The notes under the pieces are model-generated. The model had not been told where the DNA came from. It made no database searches and saw only the letters and a list, made by a program, of their open reading frames with translations. Of a stretch of 64,000 nt of DNA, positions 9,636 through 64,000 are shown in pieces. The first letter of the stretch is position 1; each line of letters starts with the position of its first letter. The DNA is from Marsupella aquatica (lineage: Eukaryota; Plantae; Marchantiophyta). The stretch is from NCBI GenBank assembly GCA_973895155.1, contig OZ316895.1, positions 6,620,084 through 6,684,083 of the forward strand, written 5' to 3'. Both the position numbers and the translations under genes were made by a program.

Positions 9636-9646
9636 GCCTGCGCATG

Positions 9647-38282: not shown

Positions 38283-38450
38283 CACTCTTTACAGTATTTA
38301 GTGTCACAAAACAATTAGTGTCACTAACAAATAGTGTCACATACACTAATTAGAGGTAGCTCTGACTTGATTTTCAGCCAAGTGACACTATATACCGCCA
38401 CCCTTAATTTTGAAAAATAAATTAATATATTGATAATTAGAGGTGACACT
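38283..38450 (+). repeat. Left TIR plus subterminal TAGTGTCAC/GTGACACTA repeats
   Basis: tagtgtcac at about 38299, 38316 and 38332; inverted gtgacact at about 38382 and 38442. Confidence 0.85.
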
Positions 38451-39174
38451 GTTATTACCCTAAACTGCTCTCACTCCAAAGTTATCCAAACTACCAACAA
38501 CATCTCTTTGTGTGTATGTTCTTAGAAAGTTTCTTTCTGTTTAATCTTGTTAGTCTTTGTGAAAGGAGGTTGATAGATTTATAACATGGTGGGATTGGAT
38601 TGGCTGTCATAGTTGGATTTGCTAGCACAAGTGAAAGAGAATCAAGACTATATCAAAATGTCACTAGTAATTAGTTTGCATCTCATTTGGGTTATCCTCG
38701 CTGCATTTCAAAAAATGATAAATGAAGACTTAAAAAATGTGGGGATTGGGACACGGGGCACATCTGGGAAATTGATAAATCCAGGCAAACATGAAGGCAA
38801 ACATTGATTTTTGACATTGGCAAGGGACTTTGTAGCTGAGGTGAACAGTTCTGTTGACAGACATGACATGTCTTATGCACAAAATTCAATGATAAACTTA
38901 CACCAATTTGTCTCTAAATGTCAATGGTTTATAGTCTGAAAATCAACTTACACCTGAAACCCCAATTTAAGGAATACTGAAGTATTAGATTAATTCCAAT
39001 TTTATCTAAATATTATTAGTTAATGAATGATCAACCTCTTTAACATTTGGTGGGATAATCAAAAACTAAAAATGTTTTGTTGCAAGATCTTTATAACAAT
39101 GCATCACTAAATGACATCAAGTACCTCTTGATCCATGCACAAATCCTTAATTAAACTGTCATTCATTGTTTCAA

Positions 39175-39750
39175 TTGTCTATTTAATTATTATAGGGTTG
39201 AATACAAAAAAGATTGACACGCACCAGGGTGCATGACCTACAATCATAGTAAGTACCACCCTTTAATTAGTTAGTTTCTTTACAACAATTAATAGGATTG
39301 TTGTATATTACAATGTCTACTGGACATTCATTTGAATGTCAATAATATCATGCCTTAATATCACCAAACTAAGGCCCCACTAACTAATATTATATCTTAA
39401 ATAAACTAACCAACTAACTAACTTGTCTATTTAATTACTATAGGGTTGAATACAAAAAATATTGACACGCACAGGGTGCGTGACCTACAATCATAGTATC
39501 ACCCTTTAATTAGTTAGTTTCTATTGCTTTGACTCAATCAGGCATGGAACCATATAAAATCAGAAATCATTGAAAGTTGAGTTCACTTGAAGGTGTAACT
39601 ATAATTATAATTTATTAATAGGATTGTTGTATATTACAATGTCTACTCGACATTCATTTGATTGTCAATAATATCATGCCTTAATATCACCAAACTAAGG
39701 CCCCACTAACTAATATTATATCTTAAATAAACTAACCAACTAACTAACTT
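39175..39750. repeat. Local duplication of 250-320 bp downstream of the transposase stop
   Basis: ttgtctatttaatta...tgacctacaatcatagta and ttaataggattgttg...aactaaccaactaactaactt each occur twice. Confidence 0.75.
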
Positions 39751-39844
39751 AGACAATAAGACTTGTCTAAACTTGAGTTCTCTGGCTACTACTATTCTGA
39801 GTTGCCTTTTAAACTGTATGCTAAACTACATGCTTCATTAGTGT

Positions 39845-42800
39845 CTAGGATTTGTCACTTGCTATGCATGTCAAGAGATATTCTCTTGCCTTGGTAGCAA
39901 CATTCTTTGGAATTCCTACCAGCCCTGTCACTGGTCCTTTGCGTGCTTTGAAACACCACAAGGTAGAGGAAACATCTATTGTCTCAGCTTCCTTGTATAT
40001 TGGAGCTGGATCACGTTCCCATTTCTTATCCCAAGAATCTGCCCACCGCTCTCTTGGCTGCCAGTCTGATTGACCACGTTGCTTCTTTGCCATAAATGGT
40101 CTAAACCACTCAATGCCACATACATGAGTAAGAAGGTTTTGTTCATTCACTGGCCCTTCTACCACATCTGTAACAACTAACCCCATATGGACGGGATAAA
40201 CATCCAGGTCTGAGTCGTCCAGCCGTACCAACACATAACAGCCCTTCACAACATCAACCCTAGGGTTAAAACTCTCAGAAAGTTTATCTTTTGCTGGTCC
40301 CACATAATTCACTGTTGCCTCCAACTCACATGCCACATTTTGATATTCTGGTGGAACGTGCTCTCTCCATATTGATAAAGGCCAAAACCCGTATTCCAAA
40401 TTGTGTGCACCTTCAGGTTCATATTGCACCTGCTCACCCTGTAGAGTATCTACAATGTCATTCCAATAATTGATGAGAGTTGTCCAACGTCGCCTTGGTT
40501 CTTCCTCTTTTGTTTGCTTTAGAATAAACTCAAAGAATGACACATGCTTCTTCAACCCTGTCAGCACTTCAGGAAGCATTTTCAACTCCATCATTGGTAG
40601 CCGTTTGGGCACCCCAATTGGGATGTGAGGACTTTTGTCATCTTTCCATGACCACATTTCAATACCTTCCTTGGGTAACCATCCCTGATCAGTTGATTTC
40701 ATTTTGTATTGGAAGCATGGCATACTATCATGACGAACATAGAACCTAAACAGCCTGGGTTTTAAATGCCCCACCAATGCCTCAGGGCCCTTCAACATGA
40801 ATGGAGCTAAGTAGTTTTTGAAATCTGGGACCTCCTGTAGAAAATGTGGGACTGCATTGGGTGTCCTTGCTCTCATGAACAAGGACATTAACTCAAGCAA
40901 TGAGTATGTGGGGTTATGCATCATAGACTCTGAAAAATGCCCGAACATACCGTCAACGTCCTCATGAGTATGCCCAACCACCATGAAACCAAGATGAACC
41001 TCTTCAAACACCTCCCTTGCTGTCAACAATGACAAATAAGCCATCATATATCTGTTCTTGTTGTCTGAGGCACAATTATCCAGGCACAATTATCCAGTTG
41101 TAGCTTCAATACTCGTGGAAGGGGCCTGAACTTTGGTGCCTCAGTTGCTGCATCACAATGTAACAATCTCAAAATGCTTTTAAATAAAACCCTAGTCAGA
41201 CCCTAAACCCTATTAATGAAACCTTGGCTAGGAGGAGCAACAACTACACAAAGTAGAGTGTCAGTGTGTGTGAGCTTATATTATTAAATAATAATAAATT
41301 AAAGGATTGTGAGTAAAGTACCTAGGCTTGAGATGTAGGCAATATCATCCTCAAATGCTCTAAGGACACTTGCCTCCAAGATATCTTTTCTCCCAAAAAG
41401 GAGGTCTTTAAAAAGACTTGTCGAGTCTGGCCCCTCCACAAGTGATTTGATCATTGGATTTGGGTTTTCCAACATCCTTAGTATTGAATCAATTGACCCA
41501 ATAGTGATGTTGACATCACCTGGCCACACTCCAACATGATATTGGGCTATGGCCTTGGGACCATGACCATGAGTAAGGATACCAGTGACAGTAATTGAGA
41601 ACTTTTGGGCACCATCCACATGCTTAGGATTGAAGGGCATTCTTGGGAGAGCTGTCTTTGAATGATCCATCTTATCATGAATAAGGCATAACACTTCCTT
41701 TGGACGATGGATGGACTCATATCTCCAAGTATGATAGCACATTCTTTGTTGTGTGTGGTCTTGGTGATGTTCCTCCTCGTCACGCCTTAGGCCCTCTAAC
41801 TCTTCCTTAGCTCCTGTAAGGTTTGCTTTCCGTTGAAGCAACTCACTACAAGTTGTACACTTTGAAAAGTTGTTGCCCTTTTTGTGACGCAAGAACTCCC
41901 TGAAATACATCTGATGTAGATGACTCAAGGTGGGTTGGGAAATTGGAGGAAGACCAGCCTCCTTGTTGACAACATTAACCCTGTTTCTAATATTCTCCCA
42001 AGTAAGATTTGTTGGCAATTCCCTCAAAACCATCCTTGTATTATCTGCCATGGTTCTCAACTTGGCTGGATGATGATCAGCTGCCTCCCTCAATAATCTC
42101 TTTCATTGACATGAACGCTTGAGATACTTTCTCGGACATACACCTTTTTCCAGCATTACCATGGGTACCTATGTTCATTCCAGACATCACAGTCTTCTTC
42201 AAGGCATAAAATTGAGTCTTTCCTCTTGAATGAATGATTCTCCATGCCTCCAAGCACAATACTTTGCCCTCCACTGCTAGAATCCTTTCTCCAGTACCCA
42301 AGTGTATTGTATTTTTAATAGCCTTGATTTCCACCTCCTTGCGCTCCGCAAAAGATTTTGACCACCACTTTTGCCTAATTGCCATAGCCAAGTTGCGGTC
42401 CAAATATTGGCAACAATGTTCACTACAACAGTCCTTAGTGTTTATCAACAACACATCTTGACGTGCCAAAGATGTGTCTCTTCTAGATGTCTGGGAAGAT
42501 GGACTCTTTCTTTTCCTACTTTTATGGACGTAGGACCGCTTGCCACTTGTTGGAGATGTGTTCCCTCCCACAGCTTGCCTGATGTTGTGGAAAGACAACA
42601 AGTTGCCATCCTTGGCAATGAGTTGGTCCCCCGGTTGGTCCATCGACCAAGCTTTTAAGCAATCTCTATGCTTCAGATGATCTATGGTAGCTCCCTCGAC
42701 AAAATCGTTGATCAGAATTCCTACATGTGTATTCCCAAGGGTGACATCCCCAAGCTTCACTATAGGATCTAGAACATGTATAGTTGCCACTGCAAAAATC

Positions 42801-43245
42801 AACTTGTTCTCATCCACCACCTTTACAGGCATGCCCATCCACAAGGCCTTTGGTAAAACTACTTCCACACCAGACCAACTCTCATTAATATGGTTGTTCC
42901 CATCAGAAATTTGATTGACTGGATCTTGATCATCACCAACAGTGCCAAACACATCCTCTGATTCCATGGGAGCTCGAAAAGCTGATTCCTTTCCCATACA
43001 AGGTAACCCCCAATCATGTCCTTCAAAAGTTTGCCATCTTTGCATAGAATGGTCTCGTCAAAAACTTCCTCCAATAGAAGAAGAACTCTGTCCGCCCCAA
43101 GAGGAACATTGTGACAAACCCTAGAAGGATCAAGACTTATCACGCGACCTTTTCCAACTTGTTTCTCACGTATGCCTATAATAACTTGTCCGCCTTCCCT
43201 GATCCAGACTGTCGATGTCACCATAATAATTATGATCCTACACAT
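39845..43245 (-). pseudogene. DUF7869/Sola1-like DDD transposase with N-terminal Tnp1/En-Spm-like domains; disrupted by frameshifts
   Basis: CCSEHCC...LCLEAWRII...TQFY...HGNAG; FSKCTTC; CLIHDKMDHSKTALP; LPRVLKLQLDNCASDNKNRY; FMVVGHTHEDVDGMFG; intron starting at about 41321; frameshifts near 43000, 42085 and 41080. Confidence 0.8.
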
Positions 43246-43849
43246 CAGAGAATATCACTGTAAGCGTACAGTCCTGTCACGTCCGTCAACTTCACTGCAC
43301 TGTCCTATCACGTTGGTCAATAAGCAGAATGTAGTCAATGCACTGCACTGCACTGCACGCGACTGGTTGCGTGACCCTAGAGGTACCACACATACCGGCA
43401 ACAGACTATGCATGGTCCGTCAATCATTTCAAGTGAATGAGAACGACCACAATTGATTACGATCAATCATTTCACATCCACTCAGAACAAATGAGTGGAC
43501 AGTACCAGTTTGCCAATGAGTGGACACTGGACAGTCAGTAACTACTGAGGATTGTAATTCTAATAAGCGCCAGTAAAACATCCGTGAACTGCATTGTCCT
43601 GTCACGACCGTCAACAAGTAAGCAGAATGTAGTCAATGCACTACCCTGCATGCGACTAGTCGCGTGACCTTAGTCAGAGGGTGTAGGGATAATAGGGTCT
43701 ACGACGTAGAAGCTAGAAGCCTAGGCCCAAACTCTAGCTCGTACTTGGTACTTCATAAGTAAGATACAATTGCGCGTGAGACAGTAAGATACAATTACGG
43801 ATCTGAAGGCATCACACATACCGGTAACAGATTATGGATGGTCCGTTAG

Positions 43850-44218
43850 TCATTTCAAGTGAGACTCATTTCGGATCGGTTTAATAGGATTTCCTGGGAA
43901 AGCCAAATCTAATAAACTAAACTTGATTACACCCAGAAGATAGGTATTCCCAACAAGGTGGCGCCATCTACGACACACCGAAGATAGTCCTACAAACTCA
44001 TCCAATTCCTTTATTGAGAAATTTCCTGCATTAGCCGAGGAATTCAATGACTCCTTGATCCGAGGCCATATCAATTCTGCGACAATCAAATCTGGAAGTC
44101 CAGGTAGTAGTGTTTCAACAAATACAGAATATCTTGCCAGTAGACCATCTTGGCTTCTGTCCAAAACGTCAAATATTGGGCATAGATATCTGAAGCTCTC
44201 TAGACCAGGTTCCCCCAT
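43850..44218 (-). CDS. F-box-like ORF or exon upstream of the transposase
   Basis: LLPGLPDLIVAELIWPRI...LSSVCRRWRHLV, an F-box with an internal insertion, paralogous to those at 51.8-52.9 kb. Confidence 0.6.
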   Translation of the reverse strand: MGEPGLESFRYLCPIFDVLDRSQDGLLARYSVFVETLLPGLPDLIVAELIWPRIKESLNSSANAGNFSIKELDEFVGLSSVCRRWRHLVGNTYLLGVIKFSLLDLAFPGNPIKPIRNESHLK

Positions 44219-44362
44219 GACTCTTTTCAGCCAAATGATATATCCCAGGGATGATTTTCACGCGACTGGTCGCGTCTACAAATCAGAATGTATAAACAAT
44301 TCTTTGGGAGATTGTGGTTTTTTTGGGTCACAACGTGACAAATCATAAATGTTGCTTCGTCC

Positions 44363-45810
44363 TCTAACAGAACCAGTCAATGAGATAGCTACCTCAAACG
44401 CGACTGGTCCGTCAACTGATCCTAAATAGAACGTTACCTTCTCTAACAGAACCAGTCAATGAGAGAGCTACCTCAGACGCGACTGGTCGCGTCACCTGAT
44501 CCTAAATGGAACGTTACCTCCTCTAACAGAACCAGTCAATGAGAGATCTACATCAGACGCGACCAGTCGTGTCAACTGAACATAAACAACTATATCCACT
44601 GAACCTTCCTTGTGGAGATTTGGATATGGTACGCGCTCAATAATCTATCCTGTTTCCTTCTCACACGCAACTGGTCGCGTCAACTGATCCCAAATGGAAC
44701 CTTACCTCCTCTAACAAAACCAGTCAATGAGAGAGCTACCTCAGACGCGACTGGTCGCGTCAACTGATCCTAAATGGAACATTACCTCCTCTAACAAAAC
44801 CAGTCAATGAGAGCTCTACCTCAAACGCGACTAGTCGCGTCAACTAAACCTAAACAACTATATCCACTGAACCTTCCTTGTGGAGATTTGGATATGGTAC
44901 GCGCTCAATAATCTATCCTGTTTCCTTCTCACACGCAACTGGTCGCGTCAACTGATCCCAAATGGAACCTTACCTCCTCTAACAAAACCAGTCAATGAGA
45001 GAGCTACCTCAGATGCGACTGGTCGCGTCAACTGATCCTAAATGGAACATTACCTCCTCTAACAAAACCAGTCAATGAGAGCTCTACCTCAAACGCGACT
45101 AGTCGCGTCAACTAAACCTAAACAACTATATCCACTGAACCTTCCTTGTGGAGATTTGGATATGGTACGCGCTCAATAATCTATCCTGTTTCCTTCTCAC
45201 ACGCAACTGGTCGCGTCAACTGATCCCAAATGGAACCTTACCTCCTCTAACAAAACCAGTCAATGAGAGAGCTACCTCAGACGCGACTGGTCGCGTCAAC
45301 TGATCCTAAATGGAACATTACCTCCTCTAACAAAACCAGTCAATGAGAGCTCTACCTCAAACGCGACTAGTCGCGTCAACTAAACCTAAACAACTATATC
45401 CACTGAACCTTCCTTGTGGAGATTTGGATATGGTACGTGCTCAGTAAATCTATCCTTTTTTCTTCTCACACGCGACTGATCGCATCAATTGATCATAAAA
45501 GGAACCTTAACTCCTCTAACAGAACCATTCAATGAGAGAGCTACCTTAGACGCGACTAGTCGCGTCAACTGAACCTAAACAACTATATCCACTGAACCTT
45601 CCTTGTGGAGATTTGGATATGGTACGCGCTGAGTAAATCTATCCTGTTTCCTTCTCACACGCGATTGGTCGCGTCAACTGGTCCTAAAAGGAACCTTACC
45701 TCCTCTAACAGAACCAGTCAATGAGAGAGCTACCTCAGACGCGACTGGTCGCGTCAACTGATCCTAAATGGAACCTCACAATCTTCTCACGCGACTGGTC
45801 GCGTCAACAG
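44363..45810. repeat. Tandem array 1: 268-bp higher-order unit (80+80+108 bp subunits), one ACGCG-N6-CGCGT motif per subunit
   Basis: aacaactatatccact recurs at 44585, 44853, 45121, 45389 (period 268) and 45578; about 17 motif copies such as acgcgactggtcgcgt and acgcgactagtcgcgt. Confidence 0.95.
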
Positions 45811-48379
45811 CTTAAACAACTTTTGGACACTAGGATAATACAGTGATACCACTGTGATTACTGACCCGTACGGACAAGAAAATCCGAGTAAGCATGATTT
45901 CATTCAATTTGTATTCATTCATTTGTATTCATTCATGAACTTTACAATAATTCAGATGTTTGAGCTCTGTCATTGTGAAACTATTATATATCACAAGTTT
46001 TCATATTGCAAGGAATTCAGTTTAGAGAATGATTCAGCTAAGATGATTCAATTTAGCAGTCTATTGGTTGTATTCGTCAATTAAAGGATTCAGTGTAATG
46101 AGATTCACATAACATGAGAGTTTATATGATTAAATTCACAACGTGCAGGTTTGTAATGACTTACTTAAGACGATTCAGGTTGTATTTTAATTAGTGAGTT
46201 TGTATGATTCAGACATATTTGAGTTTATAGACAAACTGCATTATGAAAACTCAGTTTAACAATCAAGAGAAATTTTAGCAAACAACAATCAACACTAGCA
46301 GAAAATGTAGAAATTGCACCTGAATTCTGAAAAATTGATGTAATCGTCTGAGAGATTGATGTCCAAGCACCTGAAGACCTTGCTGCGGCATTCCAGAAAG
46401 TAAATATAAGATTGAAGATATTAATATGCTAAGCAACAACAACACAACTTCTATATCTTCTATACATAGAGCTTCGCTGCTGCCAATTGAATAACATGTG
46501 CTTAATGCTAAGGAACTCATTATGTCGAGTTAAAAAGACTCTTCCAGAAGTACAATCAAAGTTGTCGATAGACAAACTGAGCATGAATAAAAGCGCACTA
46601 AACCTGAAGATTGAAAAAGTTGAAACAAACCTGAATGATGAATTAAAGGAGCTGAAACAAGCTGCCAAAAAGTAGTTCAAGCTGCTAAAACATGTTGATC
46701 GAGCTGATATGAGCTTAAAATTGGCTGACACAAGTTGATACGAGCACTCCCAAAAAACTAGCTGCAATGAACCCAACGAGCTCCTAAGAATCCCTTCAAG
46801 CAAACTAGAAGTGAATACGAGCTCTAAATGCGAGCTGCAACGCACCAACGAGCTCCTGGTCAAAACGATCAACAACTACTAAGAGCTGCAACGCGCCGAC
46901 AAGCACCTGACCACAACGAACGAGCTGCAACAACGAAAATGAAATCCAGGGCAGGAGCGAGAGCGACGAGAGCAGGCGTGCGAAAGTCTAGGGAGCGAGA
47001 AACAACAACAATGAACAGTGAACTCGAGACCGTGGGCGCCGACACTAAGGAAGGACTAATTAGGGTATCGTTTTAGAATAACCCTAATAACAGCCTAGTG
47101 ACAAGAAGGTTCCAGATGATCTCCGTACACTCCACCATCGACTCAACAAACTATGCAATCGTAAAAAAAATATTACCGAAATCCTTTTGATTTGCCGTAC
47201 TAAAGGAGATTTATATTTGATCGCCAATTTGAAATTTAAACCGGTAATTATGCAACTACAAAAGATTGTTAGTGGGGACCCCCGGATCCGGATCCGTATC
47301 TTCACGATATCTGCCAATTCAAATCCAAAATGTGAACGAACGACAACTTTCTCACGATCGTTCCATCACGTAGTGGAGGCGAACTTCAACATCATTCCAT
47401 TTTGGTAGTGGAGACCGTCGGATCCGGATCCGTACTCCACTCTCTATCTTGCCAATTCAAACCCAAACTCTAAACAACGTAAAACAATTGAACTCACGGT
47501 CGGGGAGAACCGATATTCAAAATCAATCCTATACAATGATTCTCACGACTGGAGACTCAACCAATTTTCAAAATCAAAATCGAGTCCAGATGAACACATC
47601 TTTCATGGAGTCAATAGACTGATCTCACTGCTCACGGATCATTCTTCATTTTCAGTTTCTACTGACCAAGATACTAGCTGGGCTCTCACTGGAGGCTGAT
47701 CCAAGGCACATTTGAGGTGGAGCAGATTGGATCATTCGACTATTCCAGTCGGAGGCGGAGCTCATTCAAGCAACGCTGGCGCAGTTCTTGTTGTATCACC
47801 TTCTTGGGGAGGGCACATCCGATCAACCGGGAGAGAGTTGCGACGAAGTGAGACGACAAAGATTTAGAACCTCCATAGTCTGCCTCATTCACCGAAGCAT
47901 TCTAGCAGACCAACAAAGAGCGGCTATTCTGAAATCACTGTCTGGCTGAGGATTTTGATCTCGATATGATCAACAAGTTGTCATTCTCTGGTGGTGGGAT
48001 TCGGTCACGATACTCAAGGAAATTGGAGTTCAAAGGAGGAGGCTTAGTTGGCTGGGACGAGGAGGAGGCTACGCTAGAAGGAAGAGGCTTGGCTGGGAGG
48101 AGGGTTGCCGCCAACATCGTTGAGACCACACGCAACTGAACAACTTGTAAGTATCAATCAACATTAATTCCGCAATAAATGAGGAGAGTAGTTGCCTTAA
48201 TTCACGCATTCAATGCATGAATTGAGTCAATGAAGTTATGGTCCAATTTCTCACTCCGATTTTGATCAATCCGTGTTTCAAGTCCAATACAGAAGCAATG
48301 TATCAGAAGTACTAGTAGAGGATCCGAATGAATTCTCTAGTCTAAAATTGTATGGCGTTCAATTATAGTTGTCCGTACA

Positions 48380-50430: not shown

Positions 50431-50679
50431 GAGGAATCTCATGGATGATTTTTCCTTGATTGAAAAAATGGTTACATCGATCCCGAAGGACTTCGGATGT
50501 GGAATCCATATCCACTAGCGCTATCGAGGAATTTAACTGACCTGGTCTTTCGAACACTATTTTCCACGGGACAAAATTAAGCTACACAGTATCTATAACA
50601 AGTTCTAACTTGAACTACTCTTAAATCTGTAGTTCTAATCTTTGACTACTCAAAATATTGTAGACTTTGATCGAGTCAG

Positions 50680-51114
50680 TCATTCCAAGATGAAGGTGTC
50701 TGGTGTGGATTCCTTTGAATCCAGGAATTCTTCTTTTGCCCAAGTCCTAACGTCCATAGATTTTCTCGGCTTGCTCTTTCTGTAATACAAATCAGAATCT
50801 TCGTTCATCTCTAATTGCCTTTTCTTCGGTGCGTCCACTTTCTTGGCCTCCTTCTTGACTGTCTTAGCGTCTGCTGCTGGTTCCCCCAAAATGGATTTTA
50901 CGCATGCTTTGGCCTTCAACTTCTCCCCCCCCAAAATGGATTCGACGAGGGCTTTGCCCTTTAACTTCTCCCCTGATGCCATCTTTGTAGTCATCTCTGT
51001 CGGATTGCTCTCCATCTGATCTTCCATCAACAAATGTGGCGAACAATGTCGTCTCTCACAAAACATTTGACCCGATTTAGTCACCGTAAATATTATATTA
51101 CATCGCTGACACAT
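50680..51114 (-). CDS. Possible small Lys-rich protein of unknown function inside the element
   Basis: 144-aa ORF with internal duplication GEKLKGKALVESILG/GEKLKAKACVKSILG; no recognisable domain; real start more likely near 51025. Confidence 0.3.
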   Translation of the reverse strand: MCQRCNIIFTVTKSGQMFCERRHCSPHLLMEDQMESNPTEMTTKMASGEKLKGKALVESILGGEKLKAKACVKSILGEPAADAKTVKKEAKKVDAPKKRQLEMNEDSDLYYRKSKPRKSMDVRTWAKEEFLDSKESTPDTFILE

Positions 51115-51798
51115 TCTGTAAGGAGTACCACGAATTTAATATGTCGAATCTTTTGAATCGTTCGTCGGAACATCCTCATTCTTCGAGCTCAGCGAAGTAG
51201 TCATCGCCCTTCAAACAAGAGATGCGGACCAAGACTAAGAATTGGAAATGAGAGAGCTGATGTGCGAATAGATTATCCAGTAGCCAGAAAGTGGAAGGCG
51301 TGGGGGAATGAGCAGTAGGGATCATCTCAATGCTTTATACTATTTAGTCTCCACTAGTCATTGTACATAGTGGTTTCTAGAAGAGAGTGCGCGTTTGACT
51401 GGCGCGTATTAGAATTGGCGGGAAGTTCAGTTGTCCTCTAATTATAGCTTTAATTTCATGTTTGGCGACCGCCCCGGTAATATTGATTGCTAGTGAAGTA
51501 CTGAGATTGCTTATGAGGGTCAATAGTTACTGACTGTCCGGTGTCCACTCATTGGTAAACTGGTACTGTCCACTCATTTTTCTGAGTGGAGTTGAAATGA
51601 TTGTTGGTAATCGATTGTAGTCGTTCTCATTCTCTCATCGTCAGTTCAAAGTTTCTTCCAGAAATACCCAAGAATTAAATTTATGGGGTCAATGTCCATA
51701 GATCTTAGGGAACTCTTAGAGATCTTAGAGATCTTAACTTACGCGACCGGGCGCGTCATATGTCTTCTAACAATGTTTTGTGATATGATAAAAGCAGG

Positions 51799-52926
51799 AT
51801 GAGCCAACTTTTGAATGAGGCTTGAGATTTCCTTTCATCTCATGAAAGAAAACAGAAAACAATATGGGATACGCTGGATGAAACCTCCTCTAGTCTCATT
51901 GGAGGAATACCAGATGTTTTGGTCATTTCAAACATTTGGCCAATACTCTACAAACACTTTATTTCAATTGAAGGATTGCGTCGATATCGACACCCCGATA
52001 ACAATTTGGTTATCGATAGGGTCCAAGACCTTATTCGGCTTGGAGCTTGTAGCAAGAAGTGGAACTTTTTAGTTACAAATACAAGGTTATGGGCTATCCT
52101 CAAACAAGCAACCCGGATTGTCGATGACGCAAATAAAACACTTTACTACATACCCGAAACTGACGAGTTGGAGTTTGACTCATTCTGTCGAGTTATTCGA
52201 GAGGATATTTCTATGTTTCCAGAAATATATGTTCTTGGGACTACTACTTTTGATGAAATCGCATTGTTTATGAACAAATATAACTATTTAGATGAGGAAG
52301 AACGAGATGTTCTAATTGAAAGGTTTGGTAGATTTTCTTAGAATCTAGGTGGTCCCAGTTCGTAATGGATAGGTTCTTGTTCTTAATCTTTTCGATATTA
52401 TGTTGCAGTCCTTTGACATGAATCAAAAATCTCATCGTCAAATGATGATGGAGCGCATTGCACGTGCAAAGGTTATGAACCAAAACATGATATGGAGTCA
52501 AGCTGAAGACCTGATACCCGGTCTTCCGGATGATATTGTCGAGAAATATATTTGGCCATTAGTCAAAGAGTTTTTCCACTCTCTTGGGAATTTGTCGGAT
52601 AATGCGATTAAAAATCGGGTCATGGACTTGATCGCCATTTGAACAGTCAGTAAGAAGTGGTGCCACATAGTTACTTATAGTAGTACTTGGGGGATGGTCA
52701 CCTTGGTAGCTTACAACTTCACTGATAGACCAGGATATGAATCGCTTCGAAGAAATTTGACTTCACGGAGTGTAGCATTCAGATTTACAGAATCCATCAG
52801 AACTCTCCTGCCACTGGACATTCTGGGTGGATTTGAAGGATCTGAACTTGACACGTTTAGGAACCTTTGGTTTTGGTTAGATGAAGATGAGCGAAAGGAT
52901 TGGGTCAGGATAAATGTTCCTAAAAT
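51799..52926 (+). pseudogene. Two tandem F-box-like modules, probably 5' exons of the large cargo gene
   Basis: LIGGIPDVLVISNIWPIL...LGACSKKWNFLV and LIPGLPDDIVEKYIWPLV...I*TVSKKWCHIV; TGA stops at 51823 and 52640; phase-2 donor AT|GTAATC (52927) fits acceptor CAG|A ATG (53003) in frame. Confidence 0.65.
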
Positions 52927-53003
52927 GTAATCGGCATGACGCGACCATGCGCGTGTTAGTATTTTATAATAAATGTTTAACTTTCAATATTTGTCTATTT
53001 CAG

Positions 53004-56000
53004 AATGGATCCTACCAGAACTTCAAAGCAAAAAAGAGACTCGTCTAAAGCTGCTTCTCGTAAGAAAGCCAAGACAAAAATGACTCCCGCGGAGACATCC
53101 ATACTTGCATATCGAGGAAAGTCAATCAGAGAGAGAACAATGGAGACAAAGAGTATCCATCTCTTTGATTCGACTGAGATATCCGATTTTGGAATAGTCG
53201 TTCGCAATGGGGCTGTCCGTCTTGTGGTGGCAAAAAATGATAAAGCTACAGTTTTGGAGAGATCACAAATTCTTGGGTGTTTCTTTGAGAAGAACATGAA
53301 AGTTAAAGAGTGTACGGAGGGATTGGTTCTGCTAGTCAACGACGACCAGCAGGAGGACAAAATAAGCATTTGTTTGGATCGAACGCAATATGTAACCTTC
53401 AATCAGCCCAGAATCGATGATCTTCTAGGTGCAAGGCACTCCTTGGAAAAGGTTACTAGTGTGGGATATCCTTCCGATCCAAAGGGATCAACGGGCTCAG
53501 ATTTGATTTGTCAATACATTATTGACATACTTGAGTTCCAGAGAGTTCCTTTCAACCAGGGATTTTGCTTGGGAAAGGCCCCCCTAGTGACCAAGGTTGA
53601 AGTATACTCGGCGGAGAATCTTCCAAAAGTAATTACCTCAGCGAATGTCGGGGCTCTATTCGATTCTTTCCTCAAAGAATATAGTGTTGTGAATATATTT
53701 AAAAGCAAGTCATTTTTTGTTGAGACATCACGTTGTCATCTTGCACCGGACCATATCAAGTGCCGAGAGTGGAATCATGATTACACAGATAGGCTAAAGA
53801 ATTCACTCCTCTCTCATTCGGCTATAAAGTTTGAAAAGCGATGCTGCTTTTTAGTCCCTGTGAAGTGGGTTCAGTCGGAGGCCGACAGAGATCCCGACTA
53901 CAATGGGACGCCCTACGATTCGGCGCCAACAGAGGAGGACACTATGACCAGTCATTTTTGGATACTCGGAGGCCAGCACACAATAATGGCGTACAAATTG
54001 CTAAAAAAGGTTGACAAAGTCAGCCAAGTTGTACGAGACGCATGCGGTATTGTAGAAGCTGTAATGTTTTGGGCAACGCTCAACAACGACAATAATGTTC
54101 ATTTGATGGGACTATTGAAGGCTCTGCACCACTGTCATCAAACATCAATGGAAGAAGGACAATTTCTCACCATTGTACGACAGTGTCATAATATCTGGAA
54201 CTCATTTGGGCGGCCTGGATCACATTATCGTCATCCAAATTGGAAGGTATGTAAATAACCCTCTTCGATCACATTATCGTTTAAAATTTTGTCACGCAAA
54301 CTGGCCAGTCAATCTTAGAATTTTTCTCACGCAAACGGTCACGTCAATCTTAGAATTGTCATGTTTCCATTATTGTTCAGGTATTTATGAGAGCTACAAG
54401 TTTTATTTGCCCATGGGCTCAAATGGGGAAGAACGAAATGATGAAATTTGGAGAATTGGCTCCGTTTCTCTTTACAATGGAGGACGAAACATTCAAGAAG
54501 TGGATGGAGGTCTACGAACTATCAAGGACAGGAGAGCTTGTAATTTACAACGGAATTTTACAGATGGACGCCATCAAAATTGTGGATAATCCCTGTGCTT
54601 ATCATCTTATGAAGAAAACATTCCGTTCTTGTCAAGGGTGCTCGGACTCGGTTCTTCGAAAGGCAACGGAATATATGTTGAGCGGAAGACTGTCTATACT
54701 CAAAAACCGAAGCATCAAAGTGAAATCTGGGAAGGCGAGGAAGTCCTCTAAGGCTCCGGTGTTGTCAACGACCAGCATGAGTTTGGAGCAATTTTGTATA
54801 AAGAAGAAGACAAAAGTTGAGTTTGAGATTTTATTATTGAGTAAACTCAACGGGGATACATCCACCCGGACGGAGCTAAAAAGTCTGATAGATTCAGCGC
54901 GGAAATTGCGGGTCAAAGGAATGATTGATCGCTTTAAGCTCGACAAGATGGTGCTGAAGCAGTTGAGAGATGCGCTTAGTGGTTATTTGAAGAAGTGCTT
55001 AAATGTAAATATTAGTAATGATAATTTGTTGAAAGAGATCGACCCAATATTCCACAGGTTGGTGGAAGGAATACAGAAATCAGTTGATAGTCAAGGAAAC
55101 CAACTAGTGCGGCCGGTCGGTGAGAGGCTGAAATTACGATCCCTGCAGGATATACAAAATGTTGGGTTTGCTGACTATACCATACGTGAAGACAAGAACC
55201 TTGCGAGCTTGATTTATTTTGATTCCTCATCAATGGGAGATTTGCGTCCGCCCAATTGCCCATTCTATGAGGGGTTATTTCATGCTATTAGCGAGATAGG
55301 GGCAAAACCACACCATGTGGTTATTATTGTAGCCTCTCCCGTTGAGTCTTATTTAATCAAACGAGTATTAGGGAAGTACACACACTACGTTGCTGTCGAT
55401 AGCCATTATATTCAGAAGCGGCCGAAGGAGAAGAAGCTTATTGTAACCTACGCTTTTCACAGCTTGGCCTTCAGCACAATGGGCGATACACAAGCCCTCG
55501 AGTTCCAATTGGTCTCCAAATATCGGATTGAGAAGATAGCCAATTTTAAAGAGAGCGACGAGTACACAACACCTTCCCCAGAAAAGATACTTCCATTCTT
55601 TGAAAGTATTGTTAGTCAATTCGTCCAATGTGGGGAATGGGCTATATGCTTCGGCGAGGGAACCAACTTGATCCAGTGCTTAATGGTAAGTTTTGAGATT
55701 TATATTTTGGGGTTTCAATTTTAAGATTATTTAGATTTTTATATTCTCAATTAATATTGTGAACTAATTTTGGCTTTTTTTACAGGATGCTGGATCCAAT
55801 GTAAAATATTACTGCCCTGTGGCAATGCATAGGGAGTTGTCTTGTTTCTTGCAACACACCACGGCGACAATTGATACAACGCTGTCATTGATTGACCCAG
55901 TACGGGCTAGTATAGAAAAATGTATAGATAAATTAATGAAGTACCGTCCATCTGTAACTGCTCTCAGGGCTGATGTTTTGGATGTCCTCCACGAACAACA

Positions 56001-56107
56001 TATCCCTGCTAATATTTGTAATCAATTATTGCAAGAGTATGCCCTCTCTGAAGATTCTGATCGATTGTACATTCGGCCAACGGAGTACCCTCGTGGGCCA
56101 ATCCAAG
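53004..56107 (+). CDS. Cargo gene exons encoding a ParB/Srx-like domain followed by a degenerate beta-class amino-methyltransferase-like fold (exons 53004-54246, 54381-55685, 55786-56107)
   Basis: Three open exons joined in frame by canonical GT-AG introns; ParB-like CREWNHDYTDRLKNSL...FWILGGQHTIMAY; MTase-like ASLIYFDSSS (DPPY position), PEKILPFFESIVSQFVQCGEWAICFGEGT (KP..L...G..VLDPFxGxGT position), then CLM|DAGSNV. Confidence 0.6.
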
Positions 56108-56235
56108 GTAGGTTACTTTTGAACCCTCTTACTTTTTCTTGTGTCACGCGAACATGCGCGTGGACATTCTTAACATTTCTTTTCATGCAAATATGTGCGT
56201 AAGTCATTCTTATCTAATGATCTGATTTTATTCAG

Positions 56236-57954
56236 ATCAAGTCGATTGCGGCTTCAATGTTGAGGATGCAAGGAGCAATGGTGATGCGGATGGTGAGGGG
56301 GAATGTGACGCGGATGGGGATGTTAATGACCAAGATCCAAAGTGGATGACCGATACGCAGAACGACGTCGGAGATTTCAACAATAGCAAGGAAGAGAGTG
56401 ACGGAGAAGAGATGAAGGACGCTGAGGACGTTGATGAAGAGGACGAGGACATGGAGGGTTCTGAGGACGCTGAGGACTCTGATGAAGAGGCCACACAGGA
56501 TCCTTGACATGAGGCGGACCGAGAGGAGGAGACCAGAGAGGAGTCGGCCCGGCAGGAGGACGCCCGGCAGGAGGCGGCCCGGCAAGAGGAGCTTCAAAAG
56601 AAGGAGGCAGCCCCGCAGGAGGAGGCCCGACAAGAGGCGGCCCGGCAAGAGGAGCTTCAAAAGAAGGAGGCGACCCAACAGGAGGAGGCCCAACAAGAGG
56701 CGGCCCGGCAAGAGGAGCTTCAAAAGAAGGAGGCAGCCCCGCAGGAGGAGGCCCGACAAGAGGCGGCCCGGCAAGAGGAGCTTCAAAAGAAGGAGGCGAC
56801 CCAGCAGGAGGAGGCCCAACAAGAGGCGGCCCGGCAAGAGGAGCTTCAAAAGAAGGAGGCGACCCGGCAGGAGGAGGCCCGACAAGAGGCGGCCCCGGCA
56901 GGAGGCGGCCTGGCAGGAGGCGGCCCGACAAGAGGCGGCTCGACAAGAGGAGCTTCAAAAGAAGGAGGCTAAGAAGAAAAAGGCGGCAGCTAGAAAAGCA
57001 ACTGCCGCAAAGAAGAAGGAAAAAGCCGACACTGAGAAAGCCCAGGCTGAGAGAGTCCTTTTAGTGACAAAGGCAAATAGGGCCAAGGCGGAGAGCGTGG
57101 CGGCTGAGAGGCTGCTGGCCGAGAGGATGGCGGACAAGATCGAACAAACCGCAAGACCGGAAAGGGTGGAGGCGGAGAAGTTGGAGGCGGAAAAGGTTGA
57201 TTCCGCAAGACTGGAGAGAGAAGAAGCCGCAAGACTGGAGAGGGTGGAGGCGGAGAAGGTGGAGGCAGAGAGGAAGGAGGCCGAGAGGGCCGAGGATCTT
57301 TCGCTTATTCCTGAGGCACAACGTCTATCGAAAATAAAGCTGAAGTTGAAGAAGCCTTCTTCACCCTCAGTTGCAGTTAAGAAGAAAATATTAGACTAAT
57401 TTCTTCGCCCGGAGTTTGAATTTAACGATCCACCCTTAAGTACAGTCTCGTTGGAAGATTGGAATAAATATTCACCGGAGCAGCTTTGAGTCCAGGCTAT
57501 CCTTGCTTTGCAATATTGGAAGGGTCTTTTGATTACCTAGGAGAAAACTGCCACTACATCCAGAATGGAGACAATCATCAATAATGTCCGCTTTTCCGAG
57601 AATCGAGTGCAAGACCTGGGAACATCTTTGGCACCAGACTCGGCTCAAGTCGTTAAGAGACTAACATCTGACTTGATATGAGTGGGTTTGTGGTCTCGAC
57701 CCCGATATACTAGTACAGAGGTCACTCGCACAGAAATTGTGGCACCGGATATTTTGGAATCGAATTCCCAGATTGTGGAATATTTAAATCAAATGCCACA
57801 ACCATTCAAAGGTCTTCCTGCCTCATCACTCCAACCTTCACAAACTGGTCCGGTGGAGTGATCACTGCGGTCTCAAGGAGGGCTGAAGGATGTTGTTGCG
57901 AAGGAGGCACCCAAGAGATCAGCTGCAAAAAGGCCAGATCCACCCAATCCAAAG
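56236..57954 (+). pseudogene. Acidic and coiled-coil exon of the cargo gene, with a frameshift near 56893 and several in-frame stops
   Basis: Phase-1 splice G|AT continues into D/E-rich sequence, then EAARQEELQKKEA repeats; the track's Arg-rich 56431 ORF is the shifted frame until about 56895; stops at 57397, 57487, 57538, 57679, 57859. Confidence 0.65.
56571..56968 (+). repeat. Coding 63-bp (21-aa) minisatellite, 5-6 copies
   Basis: gaggcggcccggcaagaggagcttcaaaagaaggaggc... unit with alternating variants. Confidence 0.9.
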
Positions 57955-58105
57955 GTCATTCGCAAGCTATAAGCTTAAAGTTTCTATTATAGCCGTCATT
58001 ATTTTATTATTGATTTGTTATTGTTTCTGTTTTCTGAGGTAGAACCCTTAGGCTACAACCTCAGTACGTTATTTGAAGGCGTACTGAAATCTCTGTTTTT
58101 TGCAG

Positions 58106-58893
58106 TTTTTTGAAAATTTGGCTAGTCAAATAGATCAATGCCTTGATCCTTCTAAGGATATGGAAGAGCTATTGACCAAGTTCTTACAACACTCAATCAA
58201 GAGAAAACATATGATGTGTCTGAGACCGTGCGAGTTTCTCACCGATGATATAATTAATGTTTATTTGAGTTTTCTCAAACTGATTCTCGATAGAGTTGGA
58301 AAGTCAGACCTTGTCAAATTCTTCCAAACACACCATTTTGAGCTTCTCTCCATGGATCCTACCATTTTCGATGAGGAGAGAGCAGCTTGGACAAAGGAGT
58401 TTCCGCTAAAAATCAGTGAATACGACAAACTGGTCTTTCCAGTACACAATGTTGTGAAAGAATATTGGTCATTGGTAGTTGTGTATCCAAAGGAGAAATG
58501 GCTCGAGTACCTAGATTCTCTAGTTCATAATCGACAAAATCCTGGGGTGCTAGATATTGTTGGGAAGTATTACGCCAACGAAATTGGCTGGAGAACTGGT
58601 GTCAACTTGGATCTCTCAGGTTGGGAACGGATATATCGGAATGATATTCCTCACCAGAGTGACGACCACAGTTGTGGTGTGTTTATCTTGAGATACGCCA
58701 AGTGCTTGTGTCAAGGAAACAAAATTAATTTTGCCACAGATCAAATTGAGAAATTCCGTAGGGAGATAGTCTTGTCGTTATTTGACATGGACTTCCGCAA
58801 GCCGACGTCCGCAATAACCTAGTTATCGGGATCCATGCTGCTATGATTGACATTTCTGGCGGAATTCCAGCACTGAACGACCATCTTGTACAG
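58106..58893 (+). pseudogene. Ulp1/peptidase C48 SUMO-protease exon; catalytic His position reads Tyr
   Basis: LRPCEFLTDDIINVYL, LVFPVHNVVKEYWSLVVV, YLDSL, IPHQSDDHSCGVFILRYA; acceptor TGCAG at 58105, donor CAG|GTAATA at 58894; frameshift near 58810. Confidence 0.88.
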
Positions 58894-58979
58894 GTAATAC
58901 ACTTCATTTCAGTGTCTCTTTTTGTAGTCACGCGACCGTTCGCGTTATAAACTTATTTTCATTTCTTAATGTTTCACAG

Positions 58980-59885
58980 AAGCCAATCCCGAAACCCCCT
59001 GATCGAGTATCGAAGGCACCAGTCCGGAAGTCCGGTGATCGTCCGGAGGCGGGAAAAAAACAGACCGTTCTAGTACGTTCTCCAAACCCTACGGCACAAA
59101 AATCACAGGTACAGATGGCGCCTAATCCATTGGCAAAGAAGTCACCGGTTCAGAAGAGACTTGTAATTTTCGATCTGAATCGGGTACTTATCTGGTCAGA
59201 AAAGATCAGCCCTGGGATGCCCATTCGGTCAAGGGGTGTGAGACAGATGCACAAGGTTATCTATCCAAGGCCTGATTTAATGGAATTTCTTGAGAAGGTG
59301 GCAGATCTATACGACATTGCGATCTGGTCGTGCATGTTCAAACGGAATATTCTATCTTGTGTAAGGCTGATACTTTGACCCGAAGTTTTGAAACGTATTA
59401 AATTTATATGGGGACAAGAATCAACTCGACCTATTGGGAAGAATAATAATGACATCCCCTTATTTTTCAAATGTCTCTCCGACATTGCCGCCGATATTAA
59501 AGATTACAACATCGAGAATGTCATTCTTATCGATGATGCTGCATATAAGACAAGCCTTAATAACTTCTATTCATCGCTGTATCCCGATGCATATTCTGGG
59601 CTCGATGATGACCTATTTTTTAGAAAGAAACTATATCCATATCTATGCGACATGTCAATTGACAAGTTGACATTCCGCGAGCTCCTTAGTGGATATGGGA
59701 TTCCAACGTTCTCTCAAGAAAATCTTGAGAGAGATTATATTGATAAGACGAATCTTTGGAGGAGAAATGTGATCATTCGTAATTAGGGGAATAAAGACCA
59801 TTTAGCAAAGTTTGACGAATATATGAAATACTTATCTGCCGAAAAAGACCGTGCTATAGAAGCCCAGGATAAGTCCGATAAGTAA
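58980..59885 (+). pseudogene. FCP1/NIF-like HAD phosphatase domain 1, with two in-frame stops
   Basis: KRLVIFDLNRVL, IYPRPDLMEFL, YDIAIWS, FIWGQE, PLFFKCL, ENVILIDDAAYK; acceptor CACAG at 58979; stops at 59376 and 59784. Confidence 0.8.
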
Positions 59886-60009
59886 ACGTTTATTATCAAT
59901 TATTATTTATAAATTGATTGAAATTGAACTTTATATTTTGGGAGTGACGCGCCCGGTCGCGTGGTTGTTTGCAATTGCATAATATGAGAATCGAATTGTT
60001 CATTTACAG

Positions 60010-60714
60010 GTGTCTAAGTGGAGCAGGTCGCGTCAACTTCTAGTTTTAGGACTGGAAAACTTCCTGTGCTCTGTTTCAAAATATACTCCTCAGTTCAAGT
60101 TGACACCCGGAATTCGTATCGGATCTCTATGTGTCGTTCCGAGGCCGCATCTTCATGATCTTATAAAATTATGTTATGATCATTTTGATGTGATGGTCTG
60201 GTCTATTCTCGACGATAAATTGGTTTATCAGATACTTTCAGAAGTGTTGTCGAGCGACCTGTCGCAGCTGATATATGTGTTCACGCGGGATTATTGCTGG
60301 AATCTTGGTTATGTGAAGAAAAATTATAAGACTGTTGTCTTCAAATCTATTGAGAGACTACGTGATATGTTTCAAGATTATCGACTAGAGAATATAATCC
60401 AGATTGATGCCTGTCCTTCCCATACATGCCAGACAACTGTATGCGGATTATTGTTCTCTAAGTCATTTCAAGGATCGTTGGATGATGTCGTTTTGAGGGA
60501 TGACCTCATTCCATATTTACGAAAGCTATCAGATTTAGGGCTTTGTCTTGCGTTCGCTAACAAGTTTGATTATCCCATCTGGTCGATTAGAAATCTACAT
60601 CGAGATTGGGATCTGAACGAGGATATATGGGAGCATCTGTACGTGCAGAGACATGCGGATCAAGTTCTTATCAAGCACTTCAATAGACGTCACTTATCAA
60701 TGGCCAGAGTGTAG
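60010..60714 (+). CDS. FCP1/NIF-like domain 2, catalytic DxDxT motif degenerate
   Basis: LLVLGLENFL, PRPHLHDLIKLCYDHFDVMVWS, VVFKSI, ENIIQID; preceded by acceptor TTTACAG at 60009. Confidence 0.75.
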   Translation: MSKWSRSRQLLVLGLENFLCSVSKYTPQFKLTPGIRIGSLCVVPRPHLHDLIKLCYDHFDVMVWSILDDKLVYQILSEVLSSDLSQLIYVFTRDYCWNLGYVKKNYKTVVFKSIERLRDMFQDYRLENIIQIDACPSHTCQTTVCGLLFSKSFQGSLDDVVLRDDLIPYLRKLSDLGLCLAFANKFDYPIWSIRNLHRDWDLNEDIWEHLYVQRHADQVLIKHFNRRHLSMARV

Positions 60715-60800
60715 AGGATGTTGTCTCTATAATATGTGACGCGACCATTCACGTGACTACATCCATACGGGCTCATGCATCTTCTTGTGTTTCTCTACAG

Positions 60801-61472
60801 GAGATTCATTGCAGTAGAGAAAATGGGCTCATAGTTTTAGATGTGGAGCATCTACTCTGTTACACTGCACCGCATTCCCGACTGATGGCGGTCTCAACTG
60901 GAATTCGGATTGGGAATATACATGTTTTTCCAAGGCCTCATCTTCAGAAATTCTTGAGATTCTATTTTGAGAATTTCGATGTAGGGATCTGGTCCTCTCT
61001 TGGGAAGAACCTTTTAGATCAGATTTTAGCATCTATTTTTACTGCAATGGAAATGGCCTCATTTAAGTATATTTGGGATCAGTCTCATTGTTACTTATGC
61101 GATGGGCTGACATCAAATAAGCGGATATTTTTGAAGTGTTTTGAGAAGGCGTATCTGCAGCAAAATATAATGCTTATCAAATCCGATGCATTTCATGCTT
61201 GTTTAGATCCTGTTGTTGGATCATTATTTCCGCCCAAATATTTTGGGTCGGTTGACGACAGTTTCCTGATTAACTTGCTGATTCCGTATCTTAGCAAGCT
61301 AGCAAAATCTTGTGAGCCGCTTGTCATTGCCAATGGAAGAGATTATCCTGATTGGTCAGTTAAATCTATTTTTAGAGAGTATGATTATAATCATACTCTA
61401 TGGGAAGACCCTGTGATTCAGAGGCATGGAGATAGATATCTAGTAGAGCAATTTAACAGACTCCCAATTTAG
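60801..61472 (+). CDS. FCP1/NIF-like domain 3, catalytic motif degenerate
   Basis: LIVLDVEHLL, PRPHLQKFLRFYFENFDVGIWSS, YIWDQSHC; preceded by acceptor CTACAG at 60800; clearly paralogous to domain 2. Confidence 0.75.
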   Translation, partial: EIHCSRENGLIVLDVEHLLCYTAPHSRLMAVSTGIRIGNIHVFPRPHLQKFLRFYFENFDVGIWSSLGKNLLDQILASIFTAMEMASFKYIWDQSHCYLCDGLTSNKRIFLKCFEKAYLQQNIMLIKSDAFHACLDPVVGSLFPPKYFGSVDDSFLINLLIPYLSKLAKSCEPLVIANGRDYPDWSVKSIFREYDYNHTLWEDPVIQRHGDRYLVEQFNRLPI

Positions 61473-62289
61473 GACGCTTCCAAAATAATAGTCGGCATGA
61501 GATCAGATTAATTTGTATTGTCGTTCTAGAAACGATTTGTAAACTCCTTATATACTGGTTATCATATATAAAGGATCTTAGAGATTTATTTCTCTATTGT
61601 TATTATTCGCGTGAGCATGTGTCTTGGTCCCGTCAAGTTGGATTGGTTAAAATGTGATGTTGCAGTCATTTTCAGGGTTTCACGCACAGCCACGCGTCCT
61701 GTCGCCCCCTTTTTATTAAAATAATAATATTTAGTGATTTTCGGAATTTCCAAAGTTCGGTTTTCTTAAATTGGGGTTCTGAGCTTCAGAATATCATAAT
61801 GAAAAATCAAGTGAAGTTTTAAAGGAGTTTAGTTGGCCTTGACATTGATGCTACTGTTGAAGTGGCTCCTGATATTGGTGAACCAGGTGAAGAGCCAGCT
61901 CAACCCTCTTCTCTTGGGGCTGTACAATGTCTTGCAAGGATGAGACACATGGGACAGATTGTAAGAGAGTGAAAAAAATGTTAGTTTGTAGCTTATGTGA
62001 GACAACATCTGCTATTCATAGTTGATTAAAGTGAATCAAAGAGATCTGACTTGTTTGCTCAATGTGTTTCAAGCATACCCCAAACTGCAAATGTGAGGAG
62101 GAGTTATAAATTTCTGAAGTTTGCTCAATATTTGAGTAGTATATGAAAGGAGTTATAAGTTTCTGAAGTTTTCTCAATGCTTGAATGAGTAGTAAGTTTT
62201 GTAAATTGTAATCAAATATTGTGCACATTTTGAACTTTTTTTATAAGCAAATTTTAACTATTGTCCATTCTTTGTTTTTAACTTTAAGT

Positions 62290-62425
62290 ATGTGTGACAC
62301 TATTTGACTTGTGACCACAATTAGTGTCATACTATATTAGTGTCACACACCCTAATTATCGTCACTTACCTCAAATATAACCTCACAGTAATTAGAGTGT
62401 GTGAGACTAAATACTGTAAAGAGTG
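62290..62425 (-). repeat. Right subterminal repeats and right TIR
   Basis: gtgacacta at about 62294, tagtgtca at about 62322 and 62338, then TIR 62400-62425. Confidence 0.85.
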
Positions 62426-63880: not shown

Positions 63881-64000
63881 AAAAGCAAATGTGATTCAGT
63901 TGGGTTCACTGCTGGATTGCGGGATTCAACCAATATAGCTATTGACTTAGGAAGTACATGACCTTAAAGTCATTTGTATATCATTTAAGGGTCCGCCCTT

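Follow-up and report, generated by a model that had tools for sequence, protein, structure and literature searches.

Why would a giant DNA transposon of a liverwort carry dozens of copies of one palindrome in and around a gene with a predicted ParB fold? The question is raised by a 64,000-nucleotide stretch of Marsupella aquatica DNA (contig OZ316895.1, positions 6,620,084 to 6,684,083, assembly GCA_973895155.1), hereafter the window, in which a 24.1-kb transposon at 38283-62425, with 26-bp terminal inverted repeats (TIRs), CAC ends and TA flanks, combines a minus-strand transposase arm with a plus-strand cargo arm. An initial annotation had read this element as a cis-motif plus trans-factor system directed against silencing; that reading has since gained introns, family-specific palindromes, purifying selection and a CpG zone bounded by the motif, while the anti-silencing itself is what we infer. 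We consider it likely that the ParB-fold protein of the cargo and the palindrome form a protein-site pair, and we assign a probability of roughly one half to this self-recognition acting as an anti-silencing system like VANC of Arabidopsis, in which CG methylation is kept off the zone.

Palindromes, the CpG-retaining zone and the predicted ParB fold

The palindrome is ACGCG-N6-CGCGT, with a consensus of about TCACGCGACCGGTCGCGTGA. At up to two mismatches, 43 non-overlapping copies lie inside the element and one elsewhere in the window; at up to one mismatch the 24.1-kb element holds 40 and the other 39.9 kb of the window none, compared with a mean of 0.10 and a maximum of 1 in 20 dinucleotide shuffles. 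Two tandem arrays contain 16 copies each (32 together) and 11 are dispersed (Table 1), so that the 43 sites provide the clustered palindromes expected of a ParB/parS system. As annotated initially, the arrays are unrelated and have only the motif in common, the best blastn match between one unit of each being 20 nt long (E 0.008). That annotation made no mention of palindromes in the cargo introns or of their overlap with the CpG-rich zone. All six palindromes within the cargo span fall in predicted non-coding gaps, which amount to 957 of 9100 bp, and none in coding exons; six of the eight predicted introns or gaps contain one. The palindrome-free spacer between the arrays is a probable divergent promoter region; a sigma-70 promoter scan, irrelevant here, gave results at chance level.

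The palindromes also delimit a zone in which CpG has been retained. The observed/expected (o/e) CpG ratio is 0.24 to the left of 43143, about 0.86-0.89 between the two change points and 0.20 to the right of 61770, and the change points lie only about 210 and 70 bp, respectively, beyond the outermost palindromes. In coding sequence, C occupies codon position 3 before G in 12 of 296 cases in the transposase versus 94 of 598 in the cargo (p 7e-8). CpG is scarce in the neighbouring CACTA and Copia frames of the window.

The cargo exon at 53005 is predicted to encode a ParB fold. An AlphaFold model of its 415 residues had a mean predicted local distance difference test score (pLDDT) of 74, and the first six rows returned for this model by Foldseek were ParB or Noc, the best at E 2.6e-3 and none below 1e-3. 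In a VIA-align comparison with 48,161 chains the top eight were all of the ParB/sulfiredoxin (Srx) type, led by PadC (Z 8.4, root-mean-square deviation 5.3, 118 residues aligned) and KorB (Z 8.3). The likeness to ParB, Noc, KorB, PadC and sulfiredoxin resides in residues 232-400, and residues 36-185 weakly resemble a PH fold (Z up to 4.9). PDB sequence searches gave nothing meaningful, and no ParA was found among the frames scanned. The helical region that follows the ParB domain contains a conserved FRxxxG and is a candidate for the DNA-reading part. Beyond it lies a methyltransferase-like region that matches eight beta-class N4-cytosine/N6-adenine enzymes weakly (hhalign E 0.053, 38 columns) and had no Pfam, PHROG, PDB or usable Atlas match.

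Table 1. Features of the transposon, in window coordinates.
Feature	Position	Strand	Remarks
Left TIR (CACTC...)	38283..38308	+	TA at 38281-38282, C at 38280
Subterminal AGTGTCAC repeats	38300..38450, again 62294-62347		Near both ends
Transposase 3' exon	39848..41089	-	DUF7869; LDNC and GHTHEDVD motifs
Transposase 5' coding region	41302..43225	-	C-x2-C, H-x3-H and HDKMD motifs
CpG-retaining zone	43143..61770		18.6 kb; outermost palindromes 43357 and 61682
Dispersed palindromes (11)	43357..61697 (span)		43357, 43650, 44260, 51741, 52939, 54329, 56146, 58930, 59947, 60739, 61682
117-bp internal inverted repeat, left arm	43432..43548		Upstream of transposase frame
F-box-like open reading frame (ORF)	43853..44257	-	Paralogue of the two plus-strand F-box ORFs
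Tandem array 1	44360..45810		80/188/268-bp units; 16 palindromes
Central spacer between arrays	45811..48436		Palindrome-free
Tandem array 2	48437..50431		256-bp units; 16 palindromes
117-bp internal inverted repeat, right arm	51520..51635		Upstream of cargo arm
Two F-box-like ORFs	51826-52362, 52373-52927	+	Internal stops private to window copy
Cargo exon	53005..54246	+	PH-like fold, residues ~36-185; predicted ParB/sulfiredoxin fold, residues 232-400, motif WILGGQHT
Cargo exon	54381..55685	+	Conserved helical region, then degenerate beta-class amino-methyltransferase-like region
Cargo exon	55786..56107	+	End part of methyltransferase-like region
Cargo exon	56236..57970	+	Acidic stretch, 63-bp EEARQEAARQEELQKK-type repeats (56539-56950), charged coil; broken in window copy; 3' end uncertain
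Ulp1/C48 SUMO-protease domain	58108..58814	+	Pfam E 6.9e-18
Three paralogous FCP1/NIF-like domains	58980-59882, 60010-60709, 60801-61508	+	Pfam E 7.8e-6, 1.2e-10, 9.7e-13
Right TIR	62400..62425	-	TA at 62426-62427, G at 62428

Relatives with palindromes of their own

A profile search yielded 26 proteins, there are two homologues in Calypogeia fissa (CAM6091819.1 and CAM6093214.1), and a metagenome scan found ten loci, eight with intron-bearing homologues of eukaryotic type and two bacterial. A search for long proteins returned no homologue of either the ParB alignment or the transposase, which is weak evidence. Two of the metagenomic loci, L001 and L010, have spliced frames free of stops (1201 and 1333 residues), in which two introns agree with those of the window gene in position and phase. 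L001 contains 13 copies of a perfect palindrome, TTTGGGTCG-NN-CGACCCAAA, and a different one, TTACGAACG-NN-CGTTCGTAA, is found in L004 (3 copies), L005 (3), L006 (2), L009 (11) and L010 (10). Counts of each palindrome in the other families were all 0, as were those in shuffles. The relatives' palindromes are placed upstream of the start codon and in homologous introns, with one L010 copy in a predicted exon. As L004 and L005, and likewise L009 and L010, are near-duplicates (98-99%), the loci amount to three palindrome families, that of the window included.

Comparison of L004/L005 with L010 indicates that the ParB exon is under purifying selection, the proportion of nonsynonymous differences being 0.10 and that of synonymous differences 0.80-0.82, a saturated value obtained from two pairs only. 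The intronic palindromes are also better conserved than the surrounding intron: motif columns matched at 41/45, 36/40 and 43/47 and other aligned columns at 49/66, 50/65 and 44/67. Distant relatives that carry their own palindromes in homologous introns present the pattern that would be expected of a co-evolving protein-site pair. At L003, arrays of a non-palindromic GGACAAGTGGTGGACC motif were observed on both sides (1-540 and 3200-4265, 12 copies), and these may represent a different recognition code.

The motif IDGQHT is common to the cargo protein and a bacterial DUF6551 protein in L007 (hhalign E 6e-6). There, and also in L008 and L021, a prophage-like bacterial region (L007 5107-7036) contains two adjacent ParB-like genes, one of them DUF6551, and genes of this type are a candidate donor family. 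The C-terminal part of L001 had no match in phages by tblastn, and viral contigs gave two ParB matches of bacterial type, with no relative of the transposase and no palindrome of the L009 type.

The carrier element and its family

The minus-strand protein, which the initial annotation had taken for a transposase, carries DUF7869 (Pfam, E 7.6e-31) and is a DDD transposase, in which LDNC and GHTHEDVD would hold the second and third acidic residues. C-x2-C and H-x3-H, a signature of EnSpm/Chapaev/Mirage-type transposases, are present in it and would allow kinship with that group; the Pfam scan gave DUF7869 and not Transposase_21, and no MULE family at E<=1. In Atlas, its nearest clusters come from eukaryotes, for the most part from Streptophyta. 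Only the window copy has the frame breaks at 42087 and 42976 and the 14-bp duplication at 41068, and direct duplications of 137 and 50 bp were noticed at 39175-39750, downstream of the transposase stop.

The TIRs reported initially proved to be identical at 25 of 26 positions, with TA directly outside both, and the match extends to 29-nt arms when CTA/TAG is included. Since this CTA/TAG context recurs at other element junctions in public contigs, either the target reads CTAG or the TIR is 3 bp longer; probably CTAG is the target and TA is duplicated. The subterminal repeats are likely transposase sites, to judge from their placement. CACTC ends with 26-bp TIRs agree with the CAC termini and short TIRs of EnSpm/CMC elements, and ends and flanks appear to fit the EnSpm/CMC elements with 2-bp target-site duplications (TSDs) known from Ectocarpus, for which the available part of the supplement gives CAC ends and TIRs of 20-25 bp (PMC12477816). 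Membership in Sola1, for which the same part gives a 4-bp target duplication (PMC12477816), is ruled out on this trait, as no 4-bp repeat adjoins the TIRs.

Three paralogous F-box-like frames are distributed over both arms. From the initial list of cargo domains, Ulp1 and the three FCP1-like domains were recovered by Pfam and ParB by structure, and the F-box and methyltransferase-like assignments stayed weak, the former at E 0.002, below the cut-off. Ulp1/C48 catalysis uses a His-Asp-Cys triad, and the usual His position is Tyr in the window copy. The catalytic motif of FCP1/NIF phosphatases, DxDx[T/V], is absent from all three domains, which read DLNRV, GLENF and DVEHL. A 151-aa frame inside the element (50683-51135, minus strand) encodes two pairs of Cys, contains a 45-bp repeat, lacks any Pfam match and is unlike the other cargo frames.

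Read depth, a rough guide to copy number only, was available from four public DNA runs of three studies for window positions 37200-44350 and 50450-64000. Three of the runs show a sharp rise in depth at the TIRs that persists across both arms: single-contig depth in run X4 is 598-743 over the transposase, 434-476 over the cargo and 5-12 in the flanks, and in run X2 it is 1260-1454 over the transposase and 9-11 in the right flank. These values suggest tens to more than 100 copies, with the cargo in about half to two thirds of them. Both arms probably belong to one family, given the high copy number of each and the F-box paralogues on both. Most of the family lacks several of the stops and frame breaks seen in the window copy, which is therefore a decaying member of a better-preserved family. 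In the run from a third organism, X5, tandem joints of terminal sequence (62369-62428) were seen together with very deep cover of parts of the transposase (40300-42450) and little of the cargo; this material probably represents related families or miniature derivatives.

Elsewhere in the window, a separate CACTA element occupies 3328-9662 on the minus strand (Transposase_21, E 1.5e-70; DUF4218; DUF4216). Its ends were not found. Adjoining frames encode twin BRCT domains (E 6e-12) together with weakly matched PHD fingers of the NSD type and may be a chromatin-reading cargo. Degraded Copia-type reverse-transcriptase frames (RVT_2, E 8e-19) lie at 16010-17911 with a CpG o/e of 0.23, and a 537-aa open frame at 22693-24303, without a Pfam match and with a CpG o/e of 0.89, is probably a host gene.

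Proposed anti-silencing, its rivals and known systems

Our best reading is that the system derives from ParB/parS, with binding and hypomethylation as its predictions. A dimer of the ParB-fold protein would recognize the palindrome by means of the helical region that follows the ParB domain. The dense sites would load many dimers, and spreading would be possible, as it is for ParB, which spreads from parS by nucleotide-dependent loading and sliding. Occupancy, together with the F-box, SUMO-protease and phosphatase-like modules, would then block or reverse host silencing of two divergent transcription units, and the methyltransferase-like domain, supposedly dead as a catalyst, would serve as a DNA-binding or scaffold part. 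Because the palindrome is full of CpG, its methylation would switch this loop off, after which a copy would decay, as the window copy has. We hold a bolder form of the idea to be doubtful: that in giant transposons of streptophytes a bacterial ParB/parS pair has become an anti-silencing clamp able to slide, which loads at family-specific palindromes, spreads over about 18 kb against CG methylation and directs its F-box, SUMO-protease and phosphatase-like modules at host chromatin factors, with protein and palindrome co-diverging between families like lock and key.

Several observations weigh against anti-silencing by a ParB-like clamp. All 25 motif-core mismatches in the window copy are C>T or G>A, so that protection has failed in this copy, and the differences listed for the family are mostly of the same type; moreover, the body of the transposase is not part of the CpG-rich zone. 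The arginine patch with which ParB engages CTP is GxxRxxA, and its position reads GQH[T/S] in 10 of 10 aligned rows; a G[G/D]GQH[T/S]xxA-type motif, WI[L/I/V][G/D]GQH[T/S], that is common to the bacterial DUF6551 protein replaces it, and clamp behaviour dependent on CTP is therefore not assured. A helix-turn-helix was not demonstrated, the structure model of exon 2 being poor (pLDDT 35). In-frame joins were obtained for the three introns that follow 53005; later joins, those after exon 4, are predicted only, and the cargo may consist of several genes. Among the relatives, a CpG-poor stretch in L009 (o/e 0.09-0.13, 2101-2800) adjoins its array, the 16-mer of L003 is CpG-free, non-palindromic and outside the gene, with none in an intron and the gene itself CpG-poor, and L002, also CpG-poor, has none of the four motifs tested. 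On their contigs, all of them too short for it, none of the relatives showed the ParB gene accompanied by a transposase, Ulp1 or FCP1. No contig in the public DNA runs spans both arms, and the cargo reaches only about 0.5-0.7 of the depth found over the transposase. Finally, X2 and X4 carry the window's own insertion with 0 differences and are thus perhaps not independent of it.

The ParB-fold protein could instead be a plain transcription regulator that binds the palindrome, that is, a KorB-like repressor or activator, or a transposition helper acting by looping or tethering, in which case low methylation would be a by-product of occupancy and transcription. The rank of KorB in the structure comparison, the arrays that flank the probable divergent promoter region and the absence of catalytic motifs from the methyltransferase-like and FCP1-like domains are all consistent with this. 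However, single sites in most introns over 10 kb exceed the needs of a promoter switch, and a helper sits poorly with the absence of palindromes from the element ends, which have AGTGTCAC repeats of their own. We regard this explanation as unlikely.

Rather improbable, in our view, is a contrast due to age, whereby the CpG-rich 18.6 kb, with the ParB gene and its sites, would be a younger block captured from a source of low methylation by an older, CpG-poor transposon. The depth deficit of the cargo and a 2-bp CA repeat outside the internal inverted pair speak for capture, and algal ParB-type cassettes are reported, in the part of the source available, to have moved between transposon superfamilies (10.1101/2025.02.11.637652). 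On the other hand, the left change point is located within the transposase frame, and CpG climbs gradually over 42800-43600, which argues against a simple insertion junction, and no well-supported joint or loose end occurs at either boundary among the joints listed. The internal pair lacks transposon-type ends and a 3-11-bp duplication, and 43432-51635 is thereby ruled out as a nested element. A nested cargo, the case that the initial annotation had named as fatal to its proposal, is likewise not favoured, because depth shows no break between the cargo and the right TIR or at the left CpG boundary, itself inside the transposase frame. Capture and protection can, moreover, both hold.

Very unlikely is an active N4-cytosine/N6-adenine methyltransferase that, in intact copies and guided by ParB, would mark the element's own DNA as proposed for algal proteins: the order of ParB and methyltransferase-like domains is that given for Sola1-1_Ec32 in the available part of its description (PMC12477816), and the hhalign score of 20.1 beats 20 of 20 column shuffles (maximum 15.3), but of DPPY only a single Asp is left in all five homologues, even in the stop-free L001 and L010, the S-adenosylmethionine-binding FxGxG is degenerate and no Pfam N6_N4_Mtase was found in the five C-terminal pieces scanned.

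Anti-silencing by a ParB-fold protein at its own palindromes would have precedents of two sorts. Proven self-protection of plant transposons is confined to VANC and TnpA, both of flowering plants, and for the ParB-type elements of algae such a role has been proposed. The available text on Sola1-1_Ec32 of Ectocarpus describes a 21.5-kb transposon with an opposite-strand gene for a ParB-like and N4-cytosine/N6-adenine methyltransferase protein and proposes self-binding (PMC12477816). It resembles the window element as a giant DNA transposon with an opposite-strand accessory gene in which a ParB-like domain precedes a methyltransferase(-like) one, and it differs, according to the same text, in its 4-bp TSD, AACCG ends and 282-bp TIR (here TA flanks, CAC ends and 26 bp) and in a methyltransferase predicted to be active (here degenerate); intronic palindromes, a CpG zone, F-box, Ulp1 and FCP1 go unmentioned in that part of the source. 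PAG3, from red-algal giant Plavaka/EnSpm elements of 17-19 kb, is described in the accessible portion of the preprint as having a ParB-like N-terminal domain, with inverted-repeat tandem arrays adjoining the gene, and its authors name VANDAL as an analogy (10.1101/2025.02.11.637652). By the same portion, PAG3 differs from our case in pairing ParB with a 2-oxoglutarate oxygenase, in a methylase that a second gene encodes together with a SET domain and in a Plavaka transposase. Both likenesses are by description, not by protein sequence. ParB-helix-turn-helix-fused adenine methylases are also noted, in the part available, for chlorophytes and chytrids (PMC4738411).

With a giant DNA transposon, a ParB-like accessory gene and inverted-repeat arrays, the window element has the traits of the algal type, and because such genes are reported with inverted repeats in giant transposons of red and brown algae, its kind is not new. 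The initial remark that the combination was undescribed thus holds in part: ParB-like accessory genes had been published, in the available parts of the sources, for red algae (10.1101/2025.02.11.637652) and Ectocarpus (PMC12477816), and no land-plant ParB-type transposon was found in the literature searched, though subscription journals and Repbase could hold one. A CpG footprint that runs from the first to the last palindrome makes self-protection testable, and at least three orthogonal protein-palindrome pairs, some with stop-free frames, could be swapped in binding or reporter assays in a model bryophyte. If the reading is true, a clamp that segregates bacterial chromosomes has been put to a new use in countering epigenetic defence, and the pairs would serve as orthogonal tools for directing hypomethylation to chosen targets on the kilobase scale.

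In its logic, the proposed system resembles VANDAL/VANC of Arabidopsis, whose family-specific motif, in the part of the source at hand, occurs in introns, intergenic DNA and tandem repeats, with CG hypomethylation local to bound sites (PMC5735166). Both systems join an accessory protein to a family-specific motif in introns and tandem repeats. By the same partial account, VANDAL has a MULE transposase, a VANC with DUF1985 and DUF287 and 9-bp non-palindromic motifs, whereas the window element has DUF7869, a predicted ParB fold and a palindrome; VANC function is proven and that of the window element is what we infer. Homology to VANC is ruled out by the absence of DUF1985 and DUF287 from the 13 cargo pieces scanned with Pfam and by the lack of a MULE transposase. 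TnpA of Spm/CACTA, as far as the available text goes, binds clusters of motifs specific to its family and brings about CG hypomethylation (10.64898/2026.08.24.746577), a similar logic; that text has it acting at the termini and derived from a transposase, in contrast to internal sites and a predicted bacterial type of fold here. The window element belongs to neither of these two systems. With bacterial ParB/parS, Noc/NBS, KorB and DUF6551, finally, the window system has in common the predicted ParB/Srx fold and a palindrome some 16-22 bp long whose central 2 bp are loose, and it differs from them in a protein without the arginine patch, encoded by a spliced eukaryotic gene with extra domains.

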